Origin: Nemertoderma westbladi
Taxonomy: Eukaryota; Animalia; Xenacoelomorpha
DNA length: 64,000 nt
Assembly (NCBI GenBank): GCA_032718475.1
Contig: JAUCBJ010008747.1
Location: forward strand, 1 to 64,000
Direction of reading: 5' to 3'
Part shown: in pieces, positions 10,244-54,186 of the stretch
Layout: the number at the start of each line of letters is the position of its first letter
How positions within the stretch are numbered: position 1 is the first letter of the stretch
Position numbers and translations under genes: made by a program
The notes under the pieces: generated by a model
What the model was told of the DNA's origin: nothing
Database searches by the model: none
The model's input: only the letters and a program-made list of their open reading frames with translations

Positions 10244-10893
10244 TTTATGAAAGAAAACTGTGTTATGTTTTTAAATGTCTACAGCTATATTTTTTCAAAA
10301 TTTTCAGTTTGTTTAGCTAGGGATTCACTTACAAATATAAATCTCAGTAAATATATATCAGAAGATGGAACATTATTAATAGAGTTCAAATTTAATGTTT
10401 AAAGATTAATGTTAATAATTGAAATTTATATATGGGATAATAATTGAAATTTATATATGGGAGGCTATCGCTTATTAAGTGAGGTTTGTGTATGGTATAG
10501 TGTGGCATAAAGTTAGGCATACAAGACAAGAGGCTTGCCTCACCCCCCTATTAGGGAGTGAGGTGCGGTACAAAGTTAGACCTTGATGCCAGGGTCTATA
10601 GGCCAGAGTGTGGTGTTGTATGACATAGTGAGGCATTGTAGCTAACAGTGAGGTATGTCTTACTGCTTCATATAAGCCATGAAGTGAGGTGAGTGAGTCA
10701 TTAATTGAGGTCTATTGGGAGTGTGGCTAGCAGAGTAAAGCTCTGTTAAATCAGATGAAACCGGTTTACCTTATCATGTGATGGTCATTAAGGAATATTG
10801 CTGTTTGAGTTAGACTCGTTAAGACATGAAACAGGTAAGTCTTGGCGAGTGAGACCTCATAAATAACTACATATGCCTCACAATAATAGAGCT

Positions 10894-11429
10894 TTATCCT
10901 ATACTCTTTGTAGAAAAGAATCCACCTTCCATCTGAGAAAATATATAATTTGCATACCCTACAGTTAGTTTGACAGAACAATAATTCATACAACCATGCC
11001 TAGTGTCAATGTGAAAAGGACAGTTAGCATTAATGTGGAAATGACAATCTGCTTTAGGGTTAATGAATTTCTTATTTATTCCAAATATTTCCAGTAGTTG
11101 CGCAGTTATTCTAAGTTCATTCTCCAAAACCATTTGTTTATACATTCCAGAAACATATACTGTTTTTCCTGTCAACTGACGTCTAATATATTGTTTAAAT
11201 ACATCATGATTTAGGAAACCATATTCCCAAGACTTTTATCTCTGCTATTTGCTACTTTTCTTTCTTTAGTTGAATTTAACGTTAAATGGAGTGGTGCTTT
11301 AATGTAATAACAAGATTGTATACAGTTTGATTTCAAATCATAAACCACAAATTCTTTAAATATTACGGAATAAAATGAGTCATTGAGTACATGGTATTGA
11401 AAATCAACAATAAACCCGTTAATTATCAA
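10894..11429 (-). pseudogene. DnaQ/DEDD-fold exonuclease-like protein with Maelstrom-like Zn motif, frameshifted
   Basis: ORF 11211-11429 reads FIVDFQY..IFKEFVVYDL..YIKAP. After a frameshift near 11235 the other frame reads SWEYGFLNHDVFKQYIRRQLTGKTVYVSGMYK and runs into ORF 10894-11175, which ends CPFH..YCSVKLTVGYANYI. Confidence 0.55.
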
Positions 11430-12378: not shown

Positions 12379-15141
12379 GCGCGCAGGATGCTTCATAAAG
12401 TACAATACGAAAGAATGCAATTTATTGCAAACCAGATGTTTATTGTAATTTTCTCAGGCGATTTGACAATGGTCTACATGATAACGAAGCTGGAGGTTTA
12501 TAATTTAAAATTTGTGGCAACCCCGTTGGCATACAGTATAACTCAACATAGGATTCAATGGGATTAGTCATGCTACGTCTAATAAAGAGCCCAAACAGTC
12601 TCAGATTATTGGGGGACTGAGCCAAGGCCAAACTGGCCCACGTATTTTCCTGAAACGGTAATTTATGTTTTATGATTTATGCCCCGCTCGCATCTTTATA
12701 TTTCATTCTATCATTCTATTGTATGACAAAAATAATACAAATGTACTGTATATTGTATTGTATGGTACCTATTGTATTGTATATTTCATCTACTGTACCT
12801 ACTGTAGTACTACTATCTATTCATCACGCATCCCCTGTCTGATTGATTTGTGTCAAATTAAATTGCCTTTGGCAACATTATTTGATACAAATCGATCGAT
12901 TAAACAATTAATTAATTGTATAACCGACCAATTAATTAATTAATTAATGACCTACTTAACACCTAAGGTGTGAAGTTGGTCCAACTGTTGCAGAAAAGGG
13001 GTAACCATTACTACTATGGATTCAAAACCAGCATGCGGGAATATAGACCAACTTATGGTTATTTTAATTAATAATACACAACGAGAGTACACCGTATCTA
13101 TTGGAGATAATCTTTGAACGGAGCAATGCTCCAATACTATATGTTTCTAAAAACATAGGCCCTGAAGACCGTTTTAAGCTTCCAATGCTGGCATTGTATG
13201 AAAATGAAGTTAGTTGTTCTTATTATTAATGAAAAATATATTGTGGTTATGGTTACAGACAGACATGAATATCATATAGCCAACACAGAAAGTAATAACA
13301 ATATAAGAGCATCTAATTAGGATGATTAGTCAGTTCAGTTATTTCCGATTGGTCAAGTAATTTGTAGCAAGATTAATCGAGATAAGTAAGTACGTACTGC
13401 ACCATATTAGTAGTAGGCAATACACCTTAATTGAAACAGCGTCTGCCATAGTAGTAGTCGTAGTCGCGTGCCCAGAGGCACAGCACCAGACAGGCTGGCA
13501 TTTAATTTGCTATAATTCCATATCGAGTAAAATACGGACATATGAACCGTGAATGTTTGGAAGACAACGCAAAGTAAATAAACAACAGACTATTAAAAGC
13601 AGATATTTACAAATACAACCCGAAATATACAGACAATAGTTCGTACGATATAGTGATATTGAGGACAAGTATTAGTAAAAATAGCAATTAAAATCAATCC
13701 AATTACATCAGTCAAAGTATTGCTGGATCAGCTTCTTTTGATACACATATAATATGTTGATGATTAGAACAAGTGTTAAATAAAATTATCAGTTAAGCTT
13801 AAAGTCTACCATATGTTAACCCTATTACCACTGGGGGGGGGGGGGGGGCATACTCGGCCCCTTCCTAGTTTTTACTTGCTGTATCTATGCAACCACATTA
13901 TGTACCAGCCCATTTTTTTTATGAGAATTAGTCAAATTTAATGGCGCATCTTTTGCAAAAAACGGCGTTGCAGTTAGATTTCAACTTTTCGATGTGGGTG
14001 CCATCTAAAATTTGGTCCCCAGCAGAAATTTTTTTGAAATTTTCAAATTTTACAAGGTCATTTGTGAGTTAGTAATTATCTTTATGTTGGGGCTTTTTTT
14101 TATTGATTCTGATTCGTATGGAGCACTCTACTACTCTATATAAGTATAAGGGAAGTGGTACGTTATTTTTTGTGCACTAAAATTAGGGCGTGGCACTTCA
14201 AATTTTCAAAATTGCAATATTCGTTAAATACTCCGAAGTTTTGATTTCAACGCATTTTGATGGGTTTTCTGGCCCACTTAATCGATTGAAAGTAATATAG
14301 AAGACTCAATTCTTAGTGGTACATCATTTTTGGTGCACCAAAGTTAGGGTGTGACAAGTAGGCTTACTTCAAATTTTCAAAATTATGATATTCGGAAAAT
14401 ACCACAAGGTTTTCATTTCAACCCATTTTTATAGGTTATCTGGACCGCTGAATCGATTGAAAATAATATTGAAGCTTCAAGTCTTAGATGTGTGCCATAA
14501 GTTGCAAAGCTCAATAATAATGAGTCAACAATCATTGGTTTACCCGACTTTATTAATAATTAACACACCGTGTGATTCTAATACAAACAGAGATATATTG
14601 AAGGTCAACCAGGATTCGCCTTAGTTTAGCTTATCTGGTAGGAATGATACCAATTATATTGCAATATAGATAAAAATAAAAATATACAGTACTCGGCAAT
14701 CCAATAACCAGTATTGCCAGTAATCATTATTGACACGTCTGCATGTCTTATATATTGACAGAAGACTGAATCACTGCTACTGATTTAGGATTATAATTAA
14801 TTACCCACGTCAGTAGTACAGCTCTGTACCAGTAGTCAGGTTACTGTTTTACAGTTTAATACCGCAGCATCCTAACTACAGTTATTAATAGGTACGCAGA
14901 GCTAAAATATTATTAAGGCAGTATTGTCCGCAGTATACCAAGATAATAAAACTTGGTATATTAGCACCCATGCGCCCTTCCATAATACAGGGCTAAAAAC
15001 CTGTAGGTTCGCAATACTCTTTTTTACCAAATGTGTTTATATTCATGTATATATTCAAACGAAATATCAGAATGTAGGAACGCCTAATAGGCTATTTCGG
15101 GCTAATTATACTGTGGTGCTATTACTGCTCCAGGGAAAGTA

Positions 15142-15937
15142 ATTCTTATACCAAACAACACCTACGTAATTAAGCCTAGTGTTCAAAGTGTTAATTGCAA
15201 TTATATTGCTCATTAATCCTTTATCTCATACACAAATCGTGACTAATCTTTTATTTATGCTTAATTCATTTCACACTTCAGAACAATCATACATATTTAA
15301 TTTATTTTTATACTACAGTAAAGAGCATACTAATCTAGTTTTTTCTAGTTTTTTGCGAAGCTGTGCTCTTATAAATTACAAACTTGAGAAGCTGTGTCCT
15401 ATGAAAATTATAATAACATGAAATCACTCAAAAAACTGATTTTATAAACATTACATACATAGTAATTTCAAATTAGGTATGACACATAATAAAAGAAATG
15501 CCGCTTTTACTTTGATCTGTTTATTTACAATATATTTCAATAGGATTACATAATTGCAACACACAATAATGACAACACTGCTTTTTTCTTTGATATTTTT
15601 AATTGCAATGCTATCAACCTAAAGATAATCTCTAAAACTATGCAAAATTTTCTTTTCATAAAATGACAATTTTTTAAAAGATTATAAAAGGATTATTTTT
15701 CCAGTCATAACGGCGCCAATAGTCTATTTTTAAACCCTAGTGAAACCGTAATGAAACCTCTCCTAATTGGATAACCTACACTTTTGGCTACATTTTGATT
15801 GGTTTTTGCTTCCGATTGGACAAATCGTTATACAAATCCATATATAAAGCATCTTTAGCAAAAGTTTTTCATTCTTTCGAATAATCACTCATATTCAAGT
15901 AAACTTTATCATTTTTTGTTATAATTTGTTTTCATTA
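15142..15937 (+). repeat. Polinton left TIR
   Basis: attcttataccaaacaacacctacg.. is the reverse complement of the sequence ending at 30907. Similarity runs ~790 bp. Confidence 0.93.
15765..15850 (+). promoter_or_regulatory. CCAAT (ATTGG x3) + TATA promoter inside the TIR
   Basis: attgg at ~15766, 15798 and 15816, then tatataaa at 15841, ~140 bp upstream of ATG 15983. Mirrored in the right TIR upstream of pPolB. Confidence 0.6.
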
Positions 15938-15982
15938 ATTATTTTAAATAATTGACAAATAGCTTATTCATCTCACTCACTC

Positions 15983-17646
15983 ATGGATCTAACAACCAAC
16001 GAAAATGAGATCTCAGTATCCGACAATTCATTTGGGTTTTATTTCGACTCCTCCAACCAAAAGTTCCCATTCACTGTCAACACCTTTCGTAATCATCCTA
16101 CTCGCATCCCTTCTCATTATGCTCATTTTATAATGAGGGCCTGCTATCAGTTGGAAGACGGGGTTTATCAATCTTCAGATGAAACATTATACTGCCCAAC
16201 AAATGATTGCCTTAAAGTGCAAAAGTCACAAGATATTGTATCTTTCAATATTCCCACTATTGAAGAAACTTTTACAATTCCATCTTCTGTTTTTACCTTC
16301 ATTCGTGACAACCATAATCATGAAAGTTTTGAAAAAATGTTGGGACCATCATCGTTGAAAGCTACATTTTCTGCTGATAACTCACCCTTCGATTTTCATG
16401 CAACTGCAAAATCAATGTTTCTTCTAATTTGGAATCATAAACCAACAATTAATCCAGAGAACAATCAAGAATGTAGGATATTCAAATTATTCAATATGGA
16501 TATTATTACTTTGTGGGAGAAAATGAATGAGCTAATTTGTATATATGACAAAAAAACCGAGTTACATTTTGGTTTTAATTTTAAAGTTGCTCAGTCATCA
16601 AACACTCAACCATCTACCTATACTGAAATTGTCAACCTTACGGATACCATCAATGGAGGGTGGCTACCTATCTCAGCTACAGCTATCGCTCTTCTTCGAC
16701 ACTATCTCGAAGTCTGTCGTCCATTCATCAACACACAAATACACTTTATTCTTCATCCTGGCAATTATGTTTCCTTCGATAGTTCAACATTTGGCTATAT
16801 TACAAATCTTCAACAAGAAAGGAATATTGCCATTGCCTCAGGAGTAGAAGTCGATGCTGGTAAAGCCATAATCTCACTACATGATTCGATATTACTAACC
16901 CCAGAAGAAGTAAACAAATTAACATTTGATACAGATGAAGCAGATGAATTTGATGAATTAAGTGAGAAACGATTAATCTCTGAAAGAATTAAACTTCACT
17001 TTATGATGCTTCGAATACTGTTGAAATCAGTGATAGGCTCTTGCATACTGCCTTCACTTTTGACAATGATGATCGAGCAACGGAAGCTTTGATACAACTA
17101 CAAAATATGCTTCATGATGTTGCTACTTCAAAGGAAATAACTCTTCCCAATCATCAATGCATGGAATTGAGCAAATCACTCACGAGTTTCATTTACACCT
17201 TCAAGGGGACAAACTACGTTGGAATCTGGCCATACAAACAAAAAGATAATAAATTTAAAACAATATTGTTTACAAGTGGGATGAATATCAAGTCAGATTT
17301 TTTCAAAAAGTTTCATGTAATGCGACAATCACCAAATCATCCTCAATGTTGCATCGCACCACATATTCATGTTCGTTATGCAAATGGTGAAACAATATTA
17401 ACCAATTTGAAGTCCCACAACCAAATTTTGCTTTCAGCAAATTTTGGAGTTGAGCATTGCATCAATTTCCTCAAACAAAAATTAGACAACGCGGTTTATC
17501 TTCCCAACCAACATCATTTGAATCTGTTTCATCCTACTTCCCTCTCAACACCACCAAAAATGTCCAACATTTCTAAAGAAATGTATAAAATAAAATTACC
17601 TACCATATGTCATAAAGACGAAAAGAAAATGAAACTAGATGATTAA
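15983..17646 (+). pseudogene. Polinton accessory protein with PC4-like ssDNA-binding repeat(s), frameshifted near 17040
   Basis: Overlapping ORFs of 369 aa and 201 aa. FIYTFKGTNYVGIWPY..SGMNIKSDFF resembles the PC4 pattern FKGxxYxxIRxY..GIxL. Confidence 0.5.
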
Positions 17647-18063
17647 CTCTTTCATATTATTCATAATTATTTAACTCTTGTGTGTAAGGAATAATTATCT
17701 GCTTTGTGTGACTTATATATCTTCAATGTTTATTTTGTTATATGTCTCTTGTATATAAGGAATATTATATATCTACTTTGTGTGACTTATTATATCTTCA
17801 ATGTGTATTTTGTTATATAACTAACACATTTCATAATTATTTAGTATAATATATTGATGATGTCGGCTATAAAAATTCAAAGTTTCCCTCATAATTTAAA
17901 AAAAAAATAAAGGAAATTTTTTCCACTCAACTTTTTATAATATATTTTTATATACTATATGACTAAATGATATTGACACACAACTATATATAAATACATC
18001 TACATGATTAAATATAATTAACACACACACACATATACACATTACATAATATATAAAATAACA

Positions 18064-18492
18064 TCATCTCTTTTTAGTCTTTCTTCTCAACCAGCATGCT
18101 AGTACTTTTTCATTATGCAACAACTCACTACTAAATATTTTCAATGGATTGACATTTTTTGGACGCTCACATAAATAATATAAGCAATATCTACCACAAC
18201 TTGTACGAAAAGGATGCTGAATTATCTGACGTGTTCTTTCCCATACAATTGTATTACGAACCAACCAATCTTCAATTCTTGGAGTTGGATATTGAGCAAA
18301 TGAATCAAAATATTCACCTTTACCATCACATACATATATAGCTACCCAATGAGTTCCAGGCAAATGACTTGGTTGAATATTACTAATGAAGCTCATCTCT
18401 CTAGAATCTATCTGAGGAAGCTTATCCACTGGAAAAGATCCTCTATAATGATTACCAACAGGATAATCATTTAAATCATATGAGTTTAACAT
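18064..18492 (-). CDS. Adenain-like cysteine maturation protease
   Basis: PGTHWVA (His), EYFDSF (Asp), Q..SCGRYCL (Gln/Cys). Confidence 0.92.
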   Translation of the reverse strand: MLNSYDLNDYPVGNHYRGSFPVDKLPQIDSREMSFISNIQPSHLPGTHWVAIYVCDGKGEYFDSFAQYPTPRIEDWLVRNTIVWERTRQIIQHPFRTSCGRYCLYYLCERPKNVNPLKIFSSELLHNEKVLACWLRRKTKKR

Positions 18493-18502
18493 TTCTTTTA
18501 TT

Positions 18503-19745
18503 TTAAAAGATAGTTACATTACCGTCTTTACTTATATTGAGACTCTTATCATATCCCATCCAGAGAATAATGTTTATTGTTGCTGGTAGTGCATTAGCAA
18601 ATTGCAACTCTAATCTTGCATTGCCAACATGTCTAGGTAAGAAATCATCACTATCTAAGTAACCATCTGGAGCAAGGTTCAAAATAAAGAAAGGGTACAT
18701 ATCACGGAAGCTAGTAGGAGTAATTGCGTTACTAGTGCCTCGTATGATAGAAGTAAGGTTATTCTGAGTATTCATTTATATATTGATTGGCACCAAAATT
18801 TGGTTTATAAGTGACACCACCAAGAACTTTTCCATCCAATGTTATTTGTAAAAAATTTACATCAAAATGCTGAAATGCCATTGAATTACGTCCATATATA
18901 CCTTTATATGCATCATTACGAATCATTCCCAAAATAATAAATCTCGGAGTATTGTTGCCAGCAAATATGTTTTCACGTACATGTGATCTCTGACCATTAC
19001 CAACTGTAAAAGTTGTAACTTCATTTTGTATGAATGGATATATAAAATCTTCCCTCTGTAGAAGATCAACATGTTCTTTCATGAGACTATCTTCTATTTT
19101 TATTCGTTTTGTTTTTAAGACAGCTTTTGTAATATTTACTCTACCTCCTTCAATGTCATCTCCACAAGTTAAACTAAAGTTATCAGGTGCTCTTGTTAAA
19201 GTAATTCTAACACTTGTTCTTGGTGGCAGTACTTTTATTTGATCAAAGATATCAATAAATAATAATCCTTGTACTTGATATTGTGAGCTTTTCAACGCTT
19301 CAGCATTTTCAAAAACAATAGGAACTCCATTTGTGGTTTGCTCTGCATATCCAGCTGCCGTAAGTATTGTTTCTTTAGTATTTCTATCATTAACTAAAAC
19401 AGCCTTTAAAAATGCTTTGTAAGCATAGTTTGAGGTATTGGGTTCAACCTGGCATTCATTAATCAATACATTAATATTAGAGAATAATGTTGATAAGGTT
19501 AATGGTGTTATTGAAACCACACCATTATTTGGTCGAGCTGTAGTTGATACTTCATAGACTATTTGTAGAGTTGTATCACCTCCTACAGTATAATATTCAT
19601 CTGATTTTTCAATTACAAAATCGATTACACTAGTTCCAATTCCAAGTGTTGTTATTGGATATACTTCATGTTCAAAACTTTCATTAATAATACTCTGTGT
19701 AGTAAAGTTGCTAAATAAATTTAATTAATCTATTGTTTCACTCAT
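18503..19745 (-). pseudogene. Major capsid protein (double jelly-roll), with nonsense and frameshift
   Basis: ATG at 19745 (MSETID*LNLFS..TQ..EVYP), NYAYKAF, PRFIILGM, FQHFDVN, RLELQFANALP..I. Stop at ~19726 and frameshift at ~18770. Confidence 0.85.
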
Positions 19746-19765
19746 TGTTATAGATTTTAACAAAA

Positions 19766-20345
19766 TTAACTAAAAATATCATCACAATCGTGTCTTTGAC
19801 CTTTGGTAACCTTTCTCCTTTGATATTTATTAACATTTATCCTTTTCCTTTTTTGTGGTTCGTTTATTGATGATGCATTTGCATTAAGAACCTCACGAAT
19901 TATTTTATTTGCTACACGTCTAGTTATTGGTTTGGTTCTTTTTAGCAATTTGTTGCATAGTTTGTTTAACTATTTTTCTTCTTGATTTTTTGAGTAATGG
20001 TACTCCTTTACGAAGAGCCGCTCGTGCAACAGGTTTAGCAATTTTTGGAATGACTTTTGCTGCCATTTTTACAATATTTCCAAATAATCCACGACCACGC
20101 TGCCCATACCTAGCATAGATAGTTCATGTATTCAAACGTCGACTTCTTAAACCACCTCGAAAATAAGGGAGACTTCCACTACTATTTCCCCATCCTCTTC
20201 CATCTTGCTTATAGCGCATTAGAAGGCGATATGGTGTAGTTTGACCAATTCTTCTTTTTCCTAAAGGATCAGTAGGATCAGGATATGAACCACCCTTAAC
20301 TAAGTAATTATCAACGCTTGACATTCTTTTTATTAAAAATATCAA
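19766..20345 (-). pseudogene. Basic virion core / membrane-lytic-type protein with GRG protease sites
   Basis: QDGRGW and QRGRGLFGNIVKMAAKVIPKIAKPV (amphipathic helix), with a basic tail ending DDIFS. In-frame TGA at 20124 and a frameshift at ~19940. Confidence 0.7.
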
Positions 20346-20390
20346 TTAGTAATATAAAATGAAGAAACAATGATTTGTTTTAGTCAACGT

Positions 20391-21182
20391 TTATTGATGC
20401 TTTAATAATAAAGTAACAACTACAGTCCCAGAATTAAGGTCTATCAAATTTCCATCATCATCTTTTAGCTGAATGTTTATTATTTCAATGTTTTGCATAT
20501 CAACAGGCTTATAATTTATGTTGTTGAATTCACGATGAACCAAAGACCCATAGTCACCTTCATATGGAATTGTTCTCAATAATGGCTTCAATTGATGTCA
20601 TACTATAACATTTGCACTTATATTGGAATAAATATTAATATTACCACTAAAGAAATCACAAGCTTTTTGAATGAAAAAAGTATCTTCATCGAGCATCATA
20701 GAACGGTTTATTTGCAAATATCCATTTTGTTTAATAACTTGGAAACGTTTTTTACTAAAGTAATTTTCTTCTTCCAACCCCAACAAACCTAGCATTCGAA
20801 TCAATTTATTACTATGAAAACGTATACGTTTGATTTTTTTCAAAAAGTGAAGCGAAATAGTATTATATAATGTATTAAATTGAATTTTTACTCTCATATC
20901 TAAAACACTCGCATTCAATTGTTCAATCAAGGTTTCTATATTGTCATAACAACCGGCAGATAATATATATCTCTTTATTTTTCCACGAACTCCTTGTGTA
21001 GTAATTAGAGTATCATTAATATTATACATTGAAGCCAAGTAAGTAATTTCTGATAATCCCACCATCCACATCCCACTCAAACGTAATGGTTGTGATAATT
21101 CTACATTAAAATTTGATGGTTTATTCTGTGGAAATCTTTCAGGTGATGAATTAGAAGGTAAATATAAAACAGTTTGCTGCAT
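20391..21182 (-). pseudogene. Minor capsid (penton-like) protein paralog 2, in-frame TGA at 20598
   Basis: LYLPSNSS..FPQN..F.VEL..L.G.W.VGLSEI.Y, IYSNI..VIV*..PLLRTIP and IQLKDDDG..VTL. Confidence 0.8.
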
Positions 21183-21184
21183 TA

Positions 21185-22009
21185 TTATTTCTTTTTTTGA
21201 CGTAAGTGTAAGGTGATTAGAGTGAATCCTGCATTAAATAGCAAAAGTTCTCCTTTTTCGTTTCGTATCTCAACTGCTATTTGATTAATAATATTGTTTG
21301 CTATAGGTCTATAATAAACTTTCCTAAAATCACTTGGGATAATATTATTTTGCTGAAGTATGATAGGTAATGTACGTAATAATGGCGCTGTTGTATTACC
21401 AACAATTGTATAAGATGTTATATCACTATAAAAGAATAAATTTTGTCTTCCTCTTACCAAATCACATGAAAAAGGACTAATTTTAGAAAAATCTTTACGT
21501 TGATTAGGTTTCTGCTTAAGTGATAAGTTATCTGTCTTTCCTATAGCAATGTTCCAATATTGATGCCACTCAACCTCTATATTATCATTCACAAATCCAT
21601 CAAAACCTAATATAGTTTTCAAATCTCCAGTTATCTCAAATGAAAAATTCTTTGAACAAGTTAGTTTAATTTTATTTGAAAATTTTATATATTTTATATT
21701 TATTGTTGTTTGAGAGTAACCAAAAGCTTCAAATGTTTCATTAATTTTTTGAACGATTGCTTCCATGCTTAAGTATAATCCTGGAGTAAAAAGAACAACA
21801 TTTCGAGAACCATTTTGATAGTAGAATATAAACTGTGATATTTGCTCAATGTTATAATATGAAGAAGAATATCGAATTTCAGATAAACCAACTTCTACAT
21901 CTGATGACAAATATAATGTATATGGAAGCTCAACTATAAATGAACTTAATGAATTATTAGGGAACCTCGAAGTTGGACCATTAGAAAATAATGTAATATA
22001 ACTATTCAT
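21185..22009 (-). CDS. Minor capsid (penton-like) protein paralog 1
   Basis: YITLFSN..FPNNSLSSF..VGLSEI.Y, FYSDI..IVGNTTAPLLRT and IRNEKGE..TLHLR. Confidence 0.85.
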   Translation of the reverse strand: MNSYITLFSNGPTSRFPNNSLSSFIVELPYTLYLSSDVEVGLSEIRYSSSYYNIEQISQFIFYYQNGSRNVVLFTPGLYLSMEAIVQKINETFEAFGYSQTTINIKYIKFSNKIKLTCSKNFSFEITGDLKTILGFDGFVNDNIEVEWHQYWNIAIGKTDNLSLKQKPNQRKDFSKISPFSCDLVRGRQNLFFYSDITSYTIVGNTTAPLLRTLPIILQQNNIIPSDFRKVYYRPIANNIINQIAVEIRNEKGELLLFNAGFTLITLHLRQKKK

Positions 22010-22049
22010 TTTTGGAAATTATATAAATTAAGTTAAATTTAATCATAAC

Positions 22050-23110
22050 TTATTTACGTAGTTGGTTTCCATCAATCCACATATTTCGCTTATTACCCTT
22101 AAATCGTACTAAATATTGCTTGCTTTTGTTTTTTATACGTTCTTTGACTATTTTTTCAATTGGAAAAATATCTGTAGCTTGCTTCACTAGTTGAAGTTCT
22201 TCTTCATAGAAGGTGCCCTCAATATCTCTACCAACAGAATCAGTTATATGATACATTGGATATGGAAGATGATCTCTTCTAATACGTTTTATCTTAAAAA
22301 TTTCATTTGTCCAGTTCCCAATATATGATTTTTCAAATACATGTTTAGCAATATTAAGTCGTACACTATTACCTATTTTCAACTTTGGTTTAGAGAGCTT
22401 CTTAACTGTACCAAAAAGTTTTAGTCTCACTATAGCTTGATTTTGCTTATTTACTTGTAAAGGCTTCATTCCTATTGATCTATGAAATGTATTATTATAT
22501 GTATTAATAATTTTAGGAAGGATATCTACCCATTTAGTATTTCTTCTACGAGTAAATATTTTGAACATCCGTGACTTTAAAGTACGATTAAAACGTTCAC
22601 AAATTGCGGCTTTGAATTGGGATCGAGTTGTATAATAATTCACCTTATTTTTCTTTAGATAAGTCAGTACTATGCGATTATTGAATTCAAGTCCTTGATC
22701 ACTATTGATCACCTTGATCAAAAAATTATTTCTAAATCTACCTTAATTTCTTTCCCTGTTTTTCGTTTTAGTGGTAATGCCCAAACTTGTTTTGAAAAAC
22801 AATCAATTACTGTTATAATATAATTGAAACCAGAATTAACATTGCTATATTTCTGCATATCAACCAAATCTGTTTGTATAGTATCTCTTATACCCGAAAT
22901 AAACATTCTAGAAGTGGGATAATAATGCCTTCTAGCTGATCTATGAAGAGTGTAGGTCGGTTGACTCGCTAGCCAATTTTTTACAATACTTTGCTTCAAC
23001 CCGCTCGCTTTGCTTAGTGCTTTTACGCCACCAAACCCTGCAGTGTTTGAAATATTGTAGTAAACAGCAGCTAGCCGACGATCTCGTTGGTTCACCATCA
23101 CTTTGGTCAT
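22050..23110 (-). pseudogene. Retroviral-like DDE integrase with C-terminal chromodomain, frameshifted near 22720
   Basis: YTLHR, QTDLVDM, IDCFSK, SDQGLEF, ERFNRTLK, YNNTFHRSIGMKP, FYEEEL and QYLVRFKG..W. Confidence 0.93.
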
Positions 23111-23204
23111 AACTACGTTTTTGACTTATACAATTACACACACAATCACAATTGATTTTCAATCTCTTAAACCAAGACATTATTATTAATATTATTACTA
23201 CTAT

Positions 23205-23432
23205 TTATATATAGTTCAAAAAAGCAATGTCGTTTATTGTTTTGATATGTTTTTTATTAGTTATTTGCTTTGAATTCTTGAGTGTCTTCTTCTTCTTCTT
23301 TTTCTTCATCTTCTTCTTCTTCTTGATATTTTTTAAGAGTTTTGTTTGTAATGGAATAGGTTTAGTATATTTTTGTTGTTCTAATAAATTATATTGTTCT
23401 GGTGTTATGAGATACATTTTATGAAATGACAT
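23205..23432 (-). CDS. Small Lys-rich Polinton protein (possibly truncated)
   Basis: KMYLITPEQY N-terminus and poly-Lys; abuts neighbouring genes. Confidence 0.5.
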   Translation of the reverse strand: MSFHKMYLITPEQYNLLEQQKYTKPIPLQTKLLKNIKKKKKMKKKKKKKTLKNSKQITNKKHIKTINDIAFLNYI

Positions 23433-23434
23433 GG

Positions 23435-23800
23435 TTATGATGCAGCAGATGCGATAGTTGTAGCTCTAACAGCTCTAACGGCTCTAACAGCCTCTACAGC
23501 TCCAACTATTAAAGGAATAAGGAATGGAAGGAATCCCCCTTTCTGTGATAATTTCTTACGATAATCCTTAATATTTGAATGCTTCTTAAAATTTCGCATT
23601 TGACTTTTATATGGAGCTAGTTTATTAGCATCGGAAGCTTTTAATCTGAGATTTCCATATAAAACATTTAATGTGATATTGATGAGAAAACGAATTAATT
23701 CATTACTAGCTTGTGTTCTAATAAATAATCCTCGAGCACGAGGTGTGCTATTTTTCAAAAACTCCAACTCAGAACGATGCTTATGAATAATAGACTTCAT
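23435..23800 (-). CDS. Polinton structural/core protein with QKGGFLP motif
   Basis: NVLYGNL and LSQKGGFLPFLIPLI, an adenain-type GG cleavage site followed by a hydrophobic helix. Confidence 0.75.
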   Translation of the reverse strand: MKSIIHKHRSELEFLKNSTPRARGLFIRTQASNELIRFLINITLNVLYGNLRLKASDANKLAPYKSQMRNFKKHSNIKDYRKKLSQKGGFLPFLIPLIVGAVEAVRAVRAVRATTIASAAS

Positions 23801-23985
23801 GTTATTAACTTATTTGAAAAAAAAAAGAATATAAAACTTCAAAACAAACATTTATTAACTAATACGCTTATAAGTGACAAATTTGCATAAAATATATACA
23901 CAAACTAATTAATGATAGAAAGTAGCATATTATTGATATTAAAAAGTAATATACATATGATATATATTGATCAATATTATTATCA

Positions 23986-24621
23986 TTATTGTAAATAAAC
24001 ACAATGTTTATGTGTAAACAGATGCCCCCGAACAAGATAATTATCATTTGTTAACTGATCAAAATCAATGATTAACGGATGAAATGGTTCTGCAGTTGCA
24101 TCACGAAAGGCATCAATTAAGAATTTAGGGTTTGTTGGATTCATCTGATATGAAAGTACACGAATTTGTGTTTGGTCTCTAGGAATTTTAAAAATAATAA
24201 AGTATGTACTATTAATTGAACGAGTTCTTGCTTCTGCTCCTCTTTGATATAAGTTTTGTATTAATAAAATAACTACAGAATGTGTATGTCGAGCAATTTT
24301 GGTGAATAATTGTGTAGTTTGCTTTGAACTTTCTAGCTCACTCATAAGATCATCAAAAACTAATATTGTATTTCTCTGAATATTTTCATTTAAATTTTCA
24401 GGAATTGTATTTAATATAGTTATATTTATCCCTCTAATGTTAGGTTTTGTTTGACCATAGAACCATATGATATTATTAGAAGGAGTATCAAATATAGTTT
24501 TCCTATTTTGAAGCAGTTTTTCAACAAATGTTGTTTTACCACTTCCAGATGGTCCTGCTATTAATATTGTGCTTCCAAATCTAAATCGTACATCAATAGG
24601 GTTATGAGATTTGCTAGCCAT
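23986..24621 (-). CDS. FtsK/A32-like genome packaging ATPase
   Basis: Walker A GPSGSGKT, Walker B LVFDDLM, RH..S and QNL, RT..NSTY...FK.PRD. Confidence 0.93.
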   Translation of the reverse strand: MASKSHNPIDVRFRFGSTILIAGPSGSGKTTFVEKLLQNRKTIFDTPSNNIIWFYGQTKPNIRGINITILNTIPENLNENIQRNTILVFDDLMSELESSKQTTQLFTKIARHTHSVVILLIQNLYQRGAEARTRSINSTYFIIFKIPRDQTQIRVLSYQMNPTNPKFLIDAFRDATAEPFHPLIIDFDQLTNDNYLVRGHLFTHKHCVYLQ

Positions 24622-25111
24622 TATTTTATAAAATGTTTATCATTATTATTATTAAAAGTTTGATATTATCTTGCGCTTATTAAAATTTTCAAATATAAAA
24701 TCTATATGAATTTTTTAAAAATAGAATTAGGCTATATATAGGATAACAATTAGTAACTAAGCCAATATCAAATTAATATAATTACAACAAATTACTATAA
24801 TGAATGCTACTCCTTATACATAAGATTACATGAAAATATGACTTTAATTGAGATAATAATTCTCATTCAAAACTAATCAAGCATATGATAAAATTGGCTA
24901 TATATAATATAGTATATTTAAAGCTATTTCTACTTAAGAGTCAGCAAAAACCTAATTTACTATAAAGAAATGGAGACATTAATTAAGTCTATAAGATAAT
25001 CATATTTACATATTATTATTTCCTAAAGTTCATTTAATAAATAAAGTTTATATAGAATACAATAAGATTTAGCGTTTGAATAACAAAATATAAATTATGC
25101 TAATTGCATAT

Positions 25112-25662
25112 TATATATTTACAAAATAATTTATATACATTATCAAACATAGTTGGATGAGTCATAGATACTATCTTACCAGTATGAAAAATACTAAAAT
25201 ATCACGTATTTATGAAGCATCGTATACCACAAAATAGTTCAGGGTTATAATCTAAGTGAAAGCTATCATTATTTATTTTAAAATTTCCACATTTTTCAAG
25301 ACATTTTCTAAAGTTGATTTCAAGAAAGATGATGCGGGTTTCAGTATTTAGTTTTAAATTTGCTATTTTCAAACTGGTAAGGTTTGCTATATAATCAATT
25401 TGTAAAAGTATATTACTACATAGGCCAACGATTGTTATAGCACCACTCTCAAAAAACATAAAAGTTGCCTCATGATTGCGAAAAATTAACATTTTCGGTT
25501 TTGTTACCAAATGACCATCTATTTGTTTAGATAACTGTATTAAATCTAGTTTTGAAGAGCAGTATGAAGAATATTGTCGATTAACAATTTGATTTAGTTT
25601 AGAAGAAATGATTTGTTTGTCTTTCTTTAATGTTGCATTATCATTAGTTTTTAGTGTTATTC
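25112..25662 (-). pseudogene. Divergent TATA-binding-protein (TBP)-like gene, in-frame TGA at 25202
   Basis: Repeat 1: IVNRQYSSYCSSKLDLIQL..KMLIFRNHEATFMFFESGAITIVG. Repeat 2: LNTETR..DYNPELFCGIRCFINT*YFSIFHTGKIV. Compare TBP KLDL..LIFSSGK..G and YEPELFPGL..LIFVSGKVV. Confidence 0.7.
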
Positions 25663-25707
25663 TAAAAATAGAAGAATAGAATGATTATGAGTTTTCTATT
25701 ATTAGTT

Positions 25708-28700
25708 TTATGTGTTGATATTATTACTATCATTGTCATAGTTGCTGGCATGTCCATGTTGCTGCCCTAAAACCACTTGTGGAGCAATGGTTTTAGGTAT
25801 AATGGGATGAGTTAACTTTGTGATATAATGTCCATAGGGATAGCTGATATTTTTATCCTTCCACCAAAAACGTTTAGTCTCCCATAAAGTTAATGATTTC
25901 TTATGATTTCGGGCTGTCCGGTTTGTCCGATCTAAAGGCATTGGTATACCGAAACAGCTCAGTTTCATTGAAATAGCAATCCAAATAATCTTGATAAGAA
26001 ATTTGCTTTGCTACAACACTTTTTGATACACCTTTACAAGTTTTTTTCTTAGGAGCATCATATGCTTCAAATGAGTATACTTTTGGTTTTAAAAATACCC
26101 ATGATTTGTAGAGACAGCCTTTTGATTCATCCTTCACAAAACCTAATGATGCTTTATATTTATTTGTATATAGATGATGTGAGGTATCATAGTTTGAAGT
26201 ATCTAAAAACCCACCATTATACATTGCAGTTAAAAATTTATCGTGTGAAGTATTAGTGATGCTAAGCATGAGGTTATCAGTATCTCCACCACAAGCTCGA
26301 ATTTGGCATCCTAATTGATGTTCTATAGGCTTAATTTTATAGTAGAAATAATCGTACATTTCCAATTTTGAGAGATCAAGGATAGCTGTTCCAATAAATA
26401 CAGCTTGATTTAAAGTTACAGCTTCCTTGCAAAATGTATGTCCAGATAAATTTGGTAAAAATACAACAAAAGACTCATGATTGGGTTTAGCGACCAATTT
26501 TTCACATTCCTCACTTGATGTTGCTAGCCTAAAATTTATTCTATTATGCACTTTTTGCAGACATTTCCCATATAGAGCATTATTTAAAAGCTTATAGAAC
26601 AGAACTTCGAATGGATTTTTGGCAGATTGTCGCTTATTTGTATTAAAAGCTATATAGTCTCTAAATATATATTTTTGTGAAAATGAATAAATATTATGAA
26701 TTTTTGTAATTTTGAGTCCCATTTTTAGATAAAATTGTAATAGTTTAATATGAACTCCATATTCTTATTTAGGAAATTGATGAAGTAAAAGTTTGGTGGA
26801 TACATCATTGTATTTTTTGAAGGAAGCATCGTCTCTAATATTATAATGCTCCCACTGGTTTTTCATATGTGGGCTGAGAAGAGAAGAAGGTACGCTCATC
26901 TTCTCAGGACCCAATGGCATATCAATAGTGAGATCTTGAACTTTTTTTGGATAATCGAGGCTTACTACACAAAAATACCCAGTATCACCATCAGCATCGA
27001 TTGTGGCCAAGTCAATTGGTATTGTGACTTCTTTGATGTTGGCATATGGAAGCTTTTGAGATAGAGCATGACCATAAAGATTGTTTGCATCCACTGGTAT
27101 CAAATATTTTTCTGGTTTGGAAGAGTCATATTCAGGTTTTCCAGGGATATTGGCCAACACCAAATGCGAGTTTAAAAAAACCATTCCTCCATGGATAGAA
27201 CGTTCAAATTGAGAATAAATGGAAGAATCACTCAATAACTCAATTGAAATATCTGTGAATTTTAGAGCAGCATCATGTGTTAATCCTGGTGCTGTATAAT
27301 AATGGAGTGGTTCTAGACTATAGTAAGTTAGGTAGAGTTGATGAAACTCTTCGAAAACATCAGCTAGGAGAGTAATATCAAGACAGAGATAGCCCATTAG
27401 ATAGTCATAGATAGTCTGACATTGAAGTTCATCCCAAGCAGTAAGTGCACGTTGATAATCTTGAATAGAACAGTCTTCGAGTTTAAGATCATTATAAAAG
27501 TCTCCAATAGGAGGTAGTTTGGTTTCATGAAGGTTGGAAATATTTTGGATATAGCTATAGGGAAAGACACCTTTATTCTTAATAGTAGAGTCTGTAATGT
27601 TTGGATATAGTGCTTTCATTTGAGTTAGCGTATGTGGAATAGCTGTGGATAGATGGAATTGTTGGAGGTAAGATAGCTACTAAGGTTGTCTAAACTAGCA
27701 GTCATAAATTGAAATGAGTCCAAAAAATTAAGGCAGATGGAATCTTTTAATGTGGCAGATTTTGCATTTTCATCTATGGGAAATGTTGCTTGTAAATTTA
27801 TATAATTTTCAGTCGTTTGCGGTATTATATTAAAATGCCAATGTTTGCGTGCACTTGTGGTCATGCCTTCCTTTAACAGTATATGTAGGTCATATTTTCG
27901 GAGATTATGAAAAATGATGGCAAATTTATTAATTTTTATTGATAATTTACAATTACAACTGACGCAAGCAGCACCACGATACTTTCCAGTATAATGGTCA
28001 TGGTCGCAAACCTTTGTAGTTAAATTTTTAGAAATGTCTAGTCCATAAGAGTCAGGAGTAAGGATACAATTACAAGAGTAGCAGTTTGTTGCAAAATTAA
28101 AGTTTTGTTGTTCAGTCTGTGTTAAGTGCATGTGTATATTAGTATTTGTGCCAGAGATTGACCATTTATAGAGTTTCCTACAGTGAGATTCTAAAGCAGT
28201 TAATAAATCATTTATTACATGATTGGAGCCATCATCTTTGAAAGTTTGAATTGGAGTAGGTGGTGGGTTTATTAAATTGCGGTTAGGTATAGTATAAAAT
28301 GCAGCCGCGCTTGCGATGTGTTTCTGAGGAAATTTGGGGTCTGATGTAGGTTCTAGAATAGTTTCTATATCAGAGTAGATGCAGAGCAGAAAGGAGGAGA
28401 AAGTGTTTTATCGAGTCTGTTAAATTTAAGTGTTAGTTTGAGTTTAAGTGTTAGGAGTAGGCATTCGCTCCACTTGTCATTTAGCGGAATAGCAAAGGTC
28501 ACGGTGTGTTTCTAATGCATTCGATGAATAAAATGGTCGTGTGCAACGCTCACAGAAAAACAAACGGTTATGTGAGCCTGTTCTTGTGTTGAATAGGCGG
28601 CCCAAGTCTGATACCGCTGAATAATGTCTAAGAAGACTGTTTGTATTGTCAACGAAAAGTAGAGTTAATACAGTTTTATTTAAGCAATGATATTTGTCAG

Positions 28701-29820
28701 GTTGGCGTAATATTGTAACCGATTTTGTGTTTTCGTGCCAGAGGAGTAAGTTTATACAATACTTGTTATTATCCTTTTCAAATTTATCAATGCCTGTTTT
28801 TATATCTACAGGAAAGGTAAGAGATGAAAAATCGAATTCATTAAGGTAAGGTGTAAATGTTGAAACTCTGCTAATATTTTGTTTTTTCCTATCAATTTTA
28901 TGCTGGAAGGCTGTAGCTAAAACTGCATACTGAAAACATTGTGGACAGTCGACATTAATAGTACTCATTTTGCCAGCCAAATTTTTTGGTATCTTTCCGC
29001 CATTACCTTTAAAATATGCATTGCGATTACAGACAGAAATTTGAATATTAATCCTATCTATTTGTACTAACCGCCAACCAGAACCCATATGTACAAAACT
29101 AGCAACTAGCTCATCTATCCTACCAACAGCATTTTGGTACCAACGTTCAAAATCATTTTCGGATGTAATTTTGTTATTTTCCCCACTAGATTTGAAACAA
29201 AATGTTTCCATTTGCACCCCATCCCCTTGCTCCCGTTCCAAAATTAAAAATATTGAAAGCCAAATTTTTATAAAAACACCTAAATTATTCGAAAAATGTT
29301 GATTCACCCTCCCCCAAACATAAGGCCTATTTTCGTCGAGTGTTTCTTCTATATCTAGATGAGCGGTTGTTAGTTTATTACTATACTCAAATAAATTGTC
29401 GTGGGCAGATGTAGTGTTGGGAAAAACTTCTTCAAAATTATTTGGAGAAGAAGAAGAAGTAGATGGTCCAGCCCCAACTTGTCCCACTGGTGATGACACT
29501 GGTGATGTAGATGGAAACACATCTTGATGTTTTCTTTTACGTGAGATCAATTGAGTGTAGCAAGAGTGTTCTTTAAAAGAAGAGAGAGTGAATGTTTCAC
29601 CGCATTTGCAACTTGAAGGTTCGTTGACAAAGGTGAAACCAGTTCCCCCTTCTTTGCAAAGAGATTGGTGTGCGATTGCACTTTTCTTTTCGGATGTGAA
29701 GACATTGCAATTGTCACATTTATATTGTTTGAAGTGTGTTTGAAGATGATGGCTAAGATTATTGGATCTCATCTCAATTTCGCAGACAGGGCAAACGATT
29801 ATTCGGGAAGACATAGGCAT
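25708..29820 (-). pseudogene. Protein-primed family B DNA polymerase with N-terminal Zn finger and endonuclease-VII-like insert; split into five ORFs
   Basis: GSGW, CFQYAV, DHDHYTGKYRGAACVSCN, FHNL..YD, FLDSFQFM..SLD, KGVFPY, DANNLYG, KLLNNALYGK, DTD, PKVYS and KGV motifs. Confidence 0.95.
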
Positions 29821-29884
29821 TGTGAATGAAAAAGTGAACTTGAATTTTTAAATGAAATATAACTTTGCAGTGTAGTAAAGACTT

Positions 29885-30085
29885 GGTTGATAAAAATACT
29901 TGAATTGTTGTAAAGTTTTTTTTTTTTTTTTTGTAGAATAACTTTGCTGATATAACTTGATGAGAGATAAATAGTTGAATTGTTGAAAAGTTTTTTTGTA
30001 GAATAACTTTGTTGATACAACTTGATGAGAGATAAATACTTGAATTATTGTAAAGTTTTTGTAGAATAACTTGTTGAATTGTTGT
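29885..30085. repeat. Degenerate ~60-70 bp tandem repeat upstream of pPolB
   Basis: Recurring gtagaataactt..ttgatgagagataaata.ttgaatt.ttg.aaagttttt. Confidence 0.65.
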
Positions 30086-30120
30086 ATTAGTATGATAATA
30101 ATAAATTATATTAAATAATA

Positions 30121-30907
30121 AATGAAAACAATTTATAACAAAAATGTAAAGTTTACTTGAACATGAGTGATTATTCGAAAGAATGAAAAAACTTTTGCTA
30201 AAGACACTTTATATATGGTTTGTATAAGGATTTGTCCAATCGGAACCAATAGCCAATCAAAAAGTAGCCAAGAAGTATAGGTTAGCCAATTAGGAAAGGT
30301 TTCTTTACATATGGTTTAAAAATAGACTATTGGTGCTGTTATGACTGGAAAAATAATCCTTTTATAATCTTTTAAAAAATTGTCATTTTATGAAAATAAA
30401 ATTTTGAATAGTTTCAGAGATTATCTTTAGGTTGATAGCATTGCAATTAAAATATCAAAGAAAAAGCGGCATTTGCATTATTGTGTGTTGGAATTAGTGA
30501 ATCCTATTGAAATATATTGTAAATAAACAGATCAAAGTAAAAGCGGCATTTCTTTTATTATGTGTCATACCTAATTTGAAATTACTATGTATGTAATGTT
30601 TATAAAATCAGTTTTTTGAGTGATTTCATGTTATTATAATTTTCATAGGACACAGCTTCTCAAGTATGTAATTTATAAGAGCACAGCTTCGCAAAAAAAC
30701 TAGAAAAAACTAGATTTAGTATGCTCTTTACTGTAGTATAAAAATAAATTAAATATGTATGATTGTTCTGAAGTGTGAAATAAATTAAGCATAAATAAAA
30801 GATTAGTCGCGATTTGTGTATGAGATAAAGGATTAATGAGCAATATAATTGCAATTAACACTTTGAACACTAGGCTTAATTACGTAGGTGTTGTTTGGTA
30901 TAAGAAT
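30121..30907 (-). repeat. Polinton right TIR (matched part)
   Basis: Reverse complement of 15142-15937. Confidence 0.93.
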
Positions 30908-31050
30908 GGGTGTGAGTGATTAAGTATTAACATCTACAACAATAGGATTAACACCTACAACAATAGGATTAACACTCTATGTGTGAGTGATTAAGAGATT
31001 AACACCTACAACAATATAATTAACACCTGCAACAATAGGATTAACACTCT
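30908..31050. repeat. Subterminal 21-bp repeats in two ~80 bp blocks
   Basis: attaacacctacaacaatagg units, each block preceded by gtgtgagtgattaag. Confidence 0.75.
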
Positions 31051-36865: not shown

Positions 36866-38430
36866 ATCTACTACTAGGATCGGCATGCTGCATTGCAGCT
36901 GCATTTTTAAGAATGCTGTGCCGGCTTGTCGACAAAATTGCGCCGCCACAACTCCCTATCACCCATGACATTTGCTAGATCATCCGCATCTTCAAGGCCA
37001 GTGTCCTTTAAGATGCGTCTCAAGAAAGTCATGGGCTGTCCACCATGCTTACTCACTCCATGAGGCTGCCAAAGTACAAGATTACACACTGGCTGGTCCT
37101 CACGGCGAAAGCAATGTCCTGCAAAGCGGAGGCGATTTTGTTCTAGTGTCAAGCTTGGGGGAACCAATGAGACACCTCCAATGTTATATAGTGTCTGGTT
37201 GGAGATGTGTGCATTGTACTTGACACAATGAACCCTGCGTAGCATTCTTGTGAATGTGCCATCCAGATATTTGGTGTTCTCAGCAGTTAGAGCCCAGCAT
37301 GGACTCACATAGAGGAGTACTGGAACTACTGCTGCACTAAATAATCGGACCTTAAGTTTCCGATTAATTCTCGGTGACTTCCATATCCTGGAAAGCCTAT
37401 TCAAGGCTGCCCATGCCTTTCCCTTACATATTCGAAGGTCCTCACCTGATTTCCGGATCCATGATCCCAGGTAACAGAAGTCGTCCACATGCTCAAGCAT
37501 ACCATCCTTTGAGCTTATGCTCATCCGATCAGAGACTTGCTGAGAACTTTCAAAGTTAACTGTCAAAATTTTGGTCTTTCTGGAGTTAATAAAAAGACCA
37601 ACACTAGAAGCATGTTCTAATGAGCTGAGGAGCCGTTGGGCTCCCTCTAGTGTTTCTGAGAGTACTCCTAAGTCATCAGCAAACTCTAGATCAGTTAGGT
37701 ACTTGGCAGGATTTCCTCGACTTCTGGAGCCAGTAGGTGGAGTTATCATCACCCCATCATCATTATAATGATCTAAGGACATGCGTAGAACATAGTCAAC
37801 CACAATAATGAACAAGAATGGTGCAAGTGCGTCTCCCTGGAGGACGCCCCATAACACTTCAAATGGTTCTGTGTCACCATCAACAGTAGACACAAATGTT
37901 GTCGAACCATCGTATACTGATCTGATTGCTGCAATAATTTCATCAGGAATCCCATATAATGAAAGTATGCTGAACATACGTGAGCGGGAGACTGAATCAA
38001 AGGCCTTGAAGAAGTCAACAAAGATAACAGCCAGATGCCTGTCTTTCTTTTTTGATAACTCTTCAATTATCCTTCTAAGTGCCAAAATGGGCTCCATGGT
38101 CCCACGGCCTTTACGGAACCCATTCTGATTTCTACGGAGCAGTCTCTCAATGGGATCCCTGAAGCGATTTAATAGAATTCTATTGTATAGCTTTGCATCA
38201 ATCGAGACAAATGAGATTCCCCGAAAAGAACCATAGAGTGTTAGGTTGCCCTTCTTGGGAACTGGCACCAACTTATTTGTTTTTATTTCTTGTGGAACTC
38301 TTGTTGTTCGGTACATGTCTACTATGATGGGATAGATGAGCTTTAAACACTCAGGTATTTTAAAGACCTCAGGGGGAACACCATCTACTCCACTGGCACG
38401 ATTGGTCTTAATGCTCTTTGCAGCAGCCTT
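36866..38430 (-). mobile_element. 5'-truncated RTE-group LINE (RT domain ORF 36907-~38430)
   Basis: [56 protein letters not shown] and DRELWR motifs; (TAG)n tail at ~36868. Confidence 0.9.
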
Positions 38431-38989
38431 CACTTCTGCAAGGAGATATCGCCAATGGGAATATGGGATACACCCCGCCACTCGATTCAGGGCACCTTGT
38501 TACCCCTTATTCGATTGTTTCTGGCCCAACACTTTTTTTTGCTCACCAGCCCTATTGTTGTTGTTATAATCTAATATTATATTTGGGCGGCTCTCTCTCG
38601 GTTTTGTTTACTTACCGTTTAATTAATTATTAACTATATCAAATCGGCTGTGAAATGTATGCCTGTATTAAATATCCAGTCAGCTGGTTTCATCAACTCG
38701 CATTACTGAAAAATAGTCTGATATTATGTTGAACCAATCTTTCCAATATGTATAAACCAATATTTATTTAGCCTACCTACTCTTACGTAAATTAATGGAT
38801 ACCCATATTTATTAGTTTATGAATTGGGTGGTATATCATTTTCAGACAACGTTTCATTTTTTCTCTCCCAGCTTTTCAAAATGGGTGGATTTTCTATATT
38901 GTAGAATGTGGTACCTAAGATGTTAATCTACACGTTTGGCTAGAATATTTTTAATATATATTTACGCCAATATTTCTTTATTTATTTGA

Positions 38990-54185: not shown

Positions 54186-54186
54186 C

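Follow-up and report, generated by a model that had tools for sequence, protein, structure and literature searches.

The stretch of DNA analysed here, called the window in the following, comprises the first 64,000 nucleotides of contig JAUCBJ010008747.1 of Nemertoderma westbladi (GenBank: GCA_032718475.1). At about 15142-30907 it carries a 15.8-kb Polinton/Maverick element with most of its genes on the minus strand. The Polinton hallmarks found in this element are a DNA polymerase of family B with protein priming (pPolB, broken), an rve integrase, long terminal inverted repeats (TIRs) and an A32-type packaging ATPase; a protease match stays below the cut-off. On the minus strand, between the remains of pPolB (25711-29847) and the ATPase (23989-24636), lies an open reading frame (ORF) with similarity to the TATA-binding protein (TBP), the place which an earlier annotation, made by a model from the letters alone and called the sequence-only reading here, had given for it. 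We regard it as probable that this ORF is a broken copy of a shortened TBP gene (mini-TBP), which a Polinton/Maverick lineage keeps directly upstream of its packaging ATPase, with an intact protein that is predicted to bind the element's promoter box and to recruit host RNA polymerase II (Pol II).

The mini-TBP open reading frame

With its internal stop read as X, the mini-TBP ORF has 194 codons (25103-25684, minus strand) and matches the Pfam TBP family in two stretches. The frame is closed by a TAG at 25100-25102, which corrects the bounds of 25112-25662 given in the sequence-only reading. The first TBP repeat (residues about 32-103, 25376-25591, minus strand) contains the best Pfam stretch (residues 32-88), and its elements are modelled with pLDDT values above 90. 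The second repeat (residues about 107-190, 25115-25366, minus strand) is cut by an in-frame TGA at 25202-25204, seen in the minus-strand translation; residues 119-173 of this repeat align to archaeal TBPs in a phmmer search against the PDB. All strings that had been quoted for the half-repeats (KLDL, FFESGAITIVG, YNPELFCGI and IFHTGKIV) occur in the minus-strand translation of 25100-25699. Both half-repeats are present as claimed, but the second one is reached only through the TGA, which had gone unmentioned.

The uninterrupted part of the frame, 25205-25684, encodes 160 amino acids and is longer than the longest open frame in 2,000 of 2,000 Markov shuffles of 24637-25708 (longest shuffled frame 153; local DNA 23% GC). 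An in-frame ATG had been reported missing, and indeed there is none before residue 65. The stop of pPolB (25708-25710, in a shifted frame that carries the C-terminal motif of the polymerase) and the stop which opens the TBP frame are separated by a gap of about 23 nucleotides.

Homology to TBP

With the stop read as X, the ORF scores 30.5-30.6 bits against the Pfam TBP family (Pfam: PF00352; E = 3.1e-7, cut-off 22.9 bits), while the uninterrupted 160 amino acids alone reach 18.6 bits, which is below the cut-off. Sequence searches against the PDB gave weak matches, the best three of which are archaeal TBPs (E = 0.26-0.31). A word-index protein search with the single query returned 128 candidates and none at E ≤ 0.01, and in an ESM Atlas feature search 29 of 30 matches were TBP clusters, at a low recognition value. 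An exhaustive HMMER search of 1.84 billion representative proteins detected six matches at E ≤ 1e-3, all of them TBP-domain proteins of 153-173 amino acids which lack an N-terminal tail. These six proteins are 27-31% identical to the query, whose residues 32-190 align to their residues 3-151, and they score 26-92 bits against the Pfam TBP model. Two follow-on profile searches brought in 10 further proteins and, in the second round, 35. Each of them carries a precomputed PF00352 annotation, and one is a named cellular TBP.

The AlphaFold2 model calculated on a 52-row alignment (pLDDT 82.7, pTM 0.71) has a disordered N-terminus (residues 1-26), followed by two units, residues 32-103 and residues 107-190, in which strands and helices are arranged as S1-H1-S2..S5-H2. 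In a Foldseek search of the PDB with this model, the matches listed down to rank 44 are TBP entries, with E-values from 3e-9 and TM-scores of 0.58-0.70, most of them at least 0.62; one match, 3eik, bears no more specific title than 'double stranded DNA binding protein'. Matches in the viral model database BFVD range from E = 1.8e-9 to about 1e-4 and include giant-virus TBP/TFIID-like proteins and an asfarvirus B263R homologue, with herpesvirus proteins matching more weakly. A divergent two-repeat TBP homologue, as the sequence-only reading had proposed, is therefore what the Pfam score of 30.6 bits, the six TBP-domain relatives and the Foldseek matches of the model to solved TBPs agree on, and the predicted structure has the TBP fold that had been expected of it. 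Both the TBP homology and the membership in a Polinton are well supported.

Together with its closest relatives, the protein forms a mini-TBP clade in which the YxPE-F and F-x-(S/T)-G-K motifs are conserved (aligned with the cellular TBPs P0036 and P0038). Four positions are presumed here, after yeast TBP, to hold the DNA-kinking phenylalanines; in the alignment three of these four positions are phenylalanine, and the first one is M, L or Q in the mini-TBP clade. Relative to cellular TBP, in which the stirrups carry the TFIIA and TFIIB contacts, about 5 residues are missing from the first stirrup and about 3 from the second. An intact mini-TBP is predicted to bind DNA, in spite of its shorter stirrups.

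Related Polintons keep the gene next to the packaging ATPase

One of the six HMMER matches, P0002, has relatives in 11 loci of metagenome contigs (L002-L012), which were found with this single protein. The 23-kb contig L007 is a Polinton with genes for PolB, KilA-N, a phospholipase A2 (PLA2)-like protein, TBP (10001-10510), ATPase (10579-11229), a zinc finger protein and an rve integrase with chromodomain, and then large unnamed ORFs. In tblastx comparisons the PolB, ATPase and integrase of the window and one downstream gene are collinear with L007. The uninterrupted L007 PolB of 1483 amino acids (zinc fingers, EndoVII-like stretch, DNA_pol_B_2) is 40-50% identical to the window PolB in most longer segments. 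L004 and L009 share the ATPase and integrase of the window and L002 its ATPase; these three contigs are shorter than L007 and have fewer genes in common with the window. Most of the longer tblastx segments between the window and L002, L004, L007 and L009 have 35-47% identity, and the window ATPase is 36-42% identical to the ATPases of these four loci.

The TBP gene is positioned directly upstream of the ATPase gene in the window as well as in L002, L004, L007 and L009; it is a Polinton gene, as had been claimed, and not a stray insertion. The TBP proteins of the relatives have 163-175 amino acids in nine open copies (L002-L010), each starting with its own ATG, while the frame of L011 closes after 31 amino acids. 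Intact coding sequences with an ATG are seen in P0002-P0007 and in the TBP ORFs of L002-L009, and the relatives' ATG corresponds to about residue 30 in the window ORF. A maximum-likelihood tree of 52 rows places the window protein in a 14-row clade (support 97/89) with TBPs from Polinton context, apart from the cellular TBPs. Three of the 15 pairs among six relatives have unsaturated silent sites, with dN/dS values of 0.185, 0.099 and 0.039; the silent sites of the other 12 pairs are saturated, at a protein identity of 52-73%. From the conserved place, the clade and the dN/dS values it follows that the TBP gene was not captured recently but has long been part of this Polinton lineage, where it is under purifying selection.

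The idea that the ORF is a recently captured fragment or retro-copy of a host TBP gene, or a frame that is open by chance and whose likeness to TBP is spurious, can be dismissed as highly improbable and is already largely refuted: the scores of the window protein alone are weak (18.6 bits on Pfam for the uninterrupted part, E = 0.26 in the PDB) and the ESM recognition value is low, but the gene is found at the corresponding place of Polinton contigs with core genes only 35-47% identical to those of the window in most longer segments, clusters with Polinton-context genes instead of cellular TBPs, has an open frame that beats all 2,000 shuffles, and is connected by profiles from the query to the mini-TBPs and from these to Pfam TBP with significance at each step.

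Besides the shared genes, KilA-N/DUF3627 and phospholipase A2-like genes are found between PolB and TBP in the relatives (L007 7151-8011 and 9095-9496, L002 32-1219, L009 1084-1524). The element of the window is without them, and its TBP comes straight after PolB. Two of the relatives also carry tRNA genes, a tRNA-Ile(GAU) between TBP and ATPase in L002 (3449-3523) and a tRNA-Cys(GCA) in L007 (5524-5595), and no tRNA gene was found in the element of the window. Cellular TBP also serves RNA polymerase III (Pol III) via TFIIIB, and by analogy a link between mini-TBP and the tRNA genes of the relatives is conceivable.

The TBP gene of L012 lies beside a DNA methylase and this locus is not a Polinton; it was used as an outgroup row only. 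Scans of viral contigs with P0001, P0002, P0035 and P0039 found no relatives, and a scan of metagenome contigs with P0001 found nothing. One weak viral-contig match to the window ATPase (L001) was not used, and a Pfam TBP search of its record found nothing.

State of the window copy and other copies in the host

Besides the TGA in the second repeat, the window copy lacks an ATG at the position where the relatives start, and a nearly invariant glycine of the mini-TBP family is missing. Other genes of the same element are broken as well. The window PolB runs through four stop-to-stop pieces that lie in two frames. It is interrupted by a TAA in frame at 26765-26767 and changes its frame near 25925-25960, and the integrase is likewise divided between two frames. 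Since neither gene has intron-sized added sequence compared with L007, we consider these frame changes to be frameshifts and not introns. Together with the 6% divergence of the TIR arms, the frameshifts mark what appears from the sequence to be an old, decayed insertion. The mini-TBP copy of the window is then presumably a dead pseudogene which is not rescued by splicing. Because of this decay it adds little beyond the presence of the gene in the Polinton family of the host.

Further copies were read from contigs of three DNA runs of the same organism (X1, X2 and X3) at 80-100% identity; contig depth was not taken as evidence. Several diverged copies in these runs cover the TBP ORF, and the gene is thus present in other family members, whose complete lack of it the sequence-only reading had named as fatal to its proposal. 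At the place of the TGA there is a sense codon in all depth of X2 and X3 and in 271 of 439 in X1, where the version of the window is also found. Some host copies have small indels of their own inside the TBP ORF. One X1 contig joins 25261 to 25789 with 15 other letters in between, which represents a family copy with most of the TBP ORF replaced.

A candidate box in the related Polintons

The motif CATAAACA occurs seven times in L007 (6521-14994), always on the coding strand, and none of 200 shuffles reached this number. Among the 26 matches in L002-L010, which stand at gene boundaries, the coding strand has 25. Each of the eight loci with CATAAACA after the TBP gene (L002 and L004-L010) has one copy soon after the TBP stop, and the motif is located before the ATG of the ATPase in L002, L004, L007 and L009, the four loci in which this ATG was located. 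Copies also stand ahead of the start codons for ATPase, integrase and a 514-amino-acid ORF (L007 13545-15089), at distances of 36-57 nucleotides from the ATG. No copy was found in the 150 nucleotides (63 in L004) upstream of the TBP gene of the relatives. Their TBP genes have another conserved element, which is T-rich, begins with AATCA and is positioned 25-50 nucleotides before the TBP ATG.

A near-match to the box in the window is GATAAACA (24633-24640, minus strand), which has seven of the eight letters of CATAAACA and lies 19 nucleotides before the ATG of the ATPase. The pattern ATAAAC[AG] is found 10 times on the coding strand of the window and 4 times on the other strand. Classical TATA patterns were counted too (CTATATATA 8 against 1.7 expected, TATATAWR 61 against 29), and nothing was drawn from these counts, as the DNA is AT-rich and the expected numbers come from shuffles of the whole window.

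The promoter-reading role which we infer for mini-TBP from these sequences would be as follows. Intact members of the family would make a minimal TBP, which would bind an element-specific box such as CATAAACA. The bound protein would then bring host Pol II to genes of the element; in the relatives such a box precedes the ATPase, the integrase and the large downstream gene, but not the TBP gene itself. The sequence-only reading had suggested that the protein might redirect host Pol II to late or structural promoters.

Evidence against the interpretation and alternative readings

Several observations weigh against the interpretation set out above. The single-sequence AlphaFold2 model failed to fold (pLDDT 34.8), and the alignment behind the successful model was made of TBP-family proteins, which makes that model lean to the TBP fold; it confirms the sequence evidence and is no independent proof of the fold. 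The window protein is only 22% identical to the TBP of L007, and in the tree its long branch joins a second long one, with its exact partner unsure. Substitutions among the host copies (40 of 60 listed) fall on codon positions 3, 1 and 2 in a ratio of 17/12/11, a weak sign of constraint and too weak to claim selection. The window shows no enrichment of the exact CATAAACA, with 3 matches where about 5 are expected, and GATAAACA at 19 nucleotides from the ATPase ATG is too close for a classical TATA box. Moreover, the box stands at gene ends and contains AATAAA in the window, and may be a poly(A) signal instead of a promoter. Finally, upstream of the relatives' start the TBP frame has 29 further codons without a stop, for which we estimate a chance of about 1 in 15 in such AT-rich DNA, and these extra codons could belong to a longer N-terminus or to an upstream exon.

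The main functional alternative is that mini-TBP is a real protein and no promoter factor. It could have an architectural role and bend DNA in packaging or in replication at the terminal repeats, or it could be a decoy for the partners of host TBP. This would suit the tight linkage of the gene to the packaging ATPase in every relative seen, the stirrups shortened by 3-5 residues, the absence of one of the four presumed kinking phenylalanines and a recurring box that could be a poly(A) signal and not a TBP site. Against it, the box is strand-specific and precedes several genes of the relatives but not the TBP gene, and the TBP relatives of giant viruses and herpesviruses, some of which are among the BFVD matches, are transcription factors. 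To our knowledge, all PF00352 members of studied function act in transcription initiation. On balance we consider a protein without promoter function unlikely.

A second alternative concerns the copy of the window itself, which might be functional and spliced, with an upstream exon that provides the ATG and is joined via an acceptor at 25662 to the TBP frame. In adenovirus E2B messages the ATG is in a distant small exon. A pyrimidine-rich tract of 20 nucleotides (TTCTATTCTTCTATTTTTAG, 25662-25681, minus strand) does end in AG at 25662, where the sequence-only reading had placed its acceptor; furthermore, the 29 open codons upstream of the start position of the relatives would be accounted for, and the approximately 23 nucleotides between the PolB stop and the stop opening the TBP frame leave no room for a promoter of its own. 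The splicing that had been deduced from the tract is not supported, as the TBP genes of the relatives are single ORFs which use their own ATG and need no splicing, and the genes of L007 are uninterrupted ORFs. The tract starts with the same letters as the AATCA element of the relatives and may, as a tentative suggestion from the sequence, be the counterpart of that element. As a candidate for the upstream exon we considered the nearest run of ATGs (25757-25733, all in one frame) with its GTAATA donor, the only upstream run that has a GT donor, which was rejected: the donor is in phase 0 whereas the acceptor needs phase 2, and joined to 25661 it runs into a stop after five codons. In addition, the in-frame TGA would still cut the second repeat of a spliced product, and the frame changes in PolB and the integrase come without intron-sized sequence in comparison with L007. 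Decay explains the missing ATG better than splicing, because the in-frame stop and the broken PolB and integrase are in the same element. Splicing of the window copy is thus unlikely, and a functional spliced gene is a reading to which we give very little credence.

Comparison with known TBP proteins

The reading as a shortened, element-borne TBP can be compared with cellular TBP and its paralogues (Pfam: PF00352; PDB: 1ytb_A, 1cdw_A, 1ais_A), in which two tandem repeats form one saddle, as they do in the model, which superposes on solved TBPs at TM-scores of 0.62-0.70. Mini-TBP differs from these in having about 160 amino acids, no N-terminal domain and about 20% identity to solved TBPs; moreover, it is located on a mobile element, and the copy at hand is broken.

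Giant viruses and herpesviruses are known to encode relatives of TBP. The giant-virus proteins (Heterosigma akashiwo virus TBP, Marseillevirus 'TFIID' and the asfarvirus B263R homologue) and the herpesvirus mimics are, like mini-TBP, virus-encoded proteins of the TBP fold. They are mostly longer (186-400 amino acids or more among the BFVD matches) and belong to large genomes. Many of the large-genome viruses with TBP-like proteins carry their own RNA polymerase, unlike the 15.8-kb element of the window, which is without polymerase subunits. The herpesvirus TBP mimic reads a non-standard late-promoter box.

According to the sequence-only reading, TBP is not among the core Polinton genes. This agrees with the literature searched, in which the only Polinton TBP in print is a gene label 'TBP' in the legend of Fig. 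5 on MELD viruses or elements with adintovirus-like PolB (Starrett et al. 2021, PMC8502044; preprint 10.1101/697771); a TBP-like gene in such elements had thus been labelled before. The MELD elements, with Polinton-type genomes of 10-50 kb, share pPolB, integrase and a TBP-like gene with the element described here. They come from datasets of non-animal eukaryotes, and the accompanying text is silent on conservation, size, neighbours and function of the TBP gene.

Polintons/Mavericks are the proposed ancestors of several groups of eukaryotic double-stranded DNA viruses. A conserved and selected mini-TBP beside the packaging ATPase, together with a strand-specific box, would make the control of their own transcription testable with one small protein and one short motif. 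It would also widen the range of virus-encoded TBPs, beyond giant viruses and herpesviruses, to elements as small as 15-20 kb. A more far-reaching version is that a whole Polinton lineage uses the smallest known virus-encoded TBP as a private promoter factor, with a distinct upstream element for its own gene and a CATAAACA-like box before the packaging, integrase and capsid genes which it reads. This would amount to a two-step, self-contained switch acting on host Pol II, perhaps also on Pol III for the tRNA genes of the relatives, in a 15-20-kb virus without its own polymerase. We put this version forward tentatively and would sooner doubt than expect it.

Other genes and ends of the element

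The TIRs are located at 15142-15953 (left) and 30104-30907 (right) and match each other in inverted orientation. The arms are 93.75% alike over 816 nucleotides, and their outermost 34 nucleotides are an exact inverted match. At the outer ends no target-site duplication was found (flanks 15136-15141 and 30908-30913 differ; a duplication of 6 bp is expected of a Polinton), and the true ends may be elsewhere or the duplication may have decayed.

The pPolB remains were identified by Pfam DNA_pol_B_2 matches on three separate stop-to-stop ORFs. In the PolB of this Polinton lineage (window 27625-29847, minus strand; L007 3-4454), the polymerase domain is preceded by a long N-terminal region, which contains zinc fingers of the C2H2 type and a stretch resembling Endonuclease VII. 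The packaging ATPase, of A32/FtsK type, is an intact ORF with its ATG at 24621 and a Pox_A32 match of 29.1 bits. It is followed by a small ORF (23438-23809, minus strand) that matches the adenovirus core protein X/mu weakly, at 25.9 bits for Adeno_PX with a cut-off of 25. The integrase with its C-terminal chromodomain (22053-23125, minus strand) was detected by weak Pfam rve and Chromo matches on two ORFs, the rve matches having E-values of 0.009 and 0.14 in two frames. It is collinear, at 37-47% identity, with the intact rve and chromodomain integrases of L004, L007 and L009 and contains no added sequence at the frame change. A candidate Ulp1/adenain-like cysteine protease is located at 18067-18513 (minus strand; Peptidase_C48, 17.8 bits, under the cut-off of 20.7). 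The ORFs at 15956-17646, 18762-19724 and 20601-22018 have no Pfam match, and neither a double nor a single jelly-roll capsid protein was assigned by Pfam; some of these ORFs are collinear with unnamed ORFs of L007.

Other features of the window

Outside of the Polinton, the window contains remains of a non-LTR retrotransposon at 4506-9214 (minus strand), with a 1037-amino-acid ORF for endonuclease and reverse transcriptase (RT) and a 534-amino-acid ORF before it. A second remnant of this kind, with an RT ORF of 530 amino acids, is located at 36907-38499 (minus strand). Very strong GC skew was observed at 2001-4000 (+0.77) and 54001-64000 (+0.41 to +0.49), with long overlapping open frames in several frames; these stretches are probably repetitive DNA.

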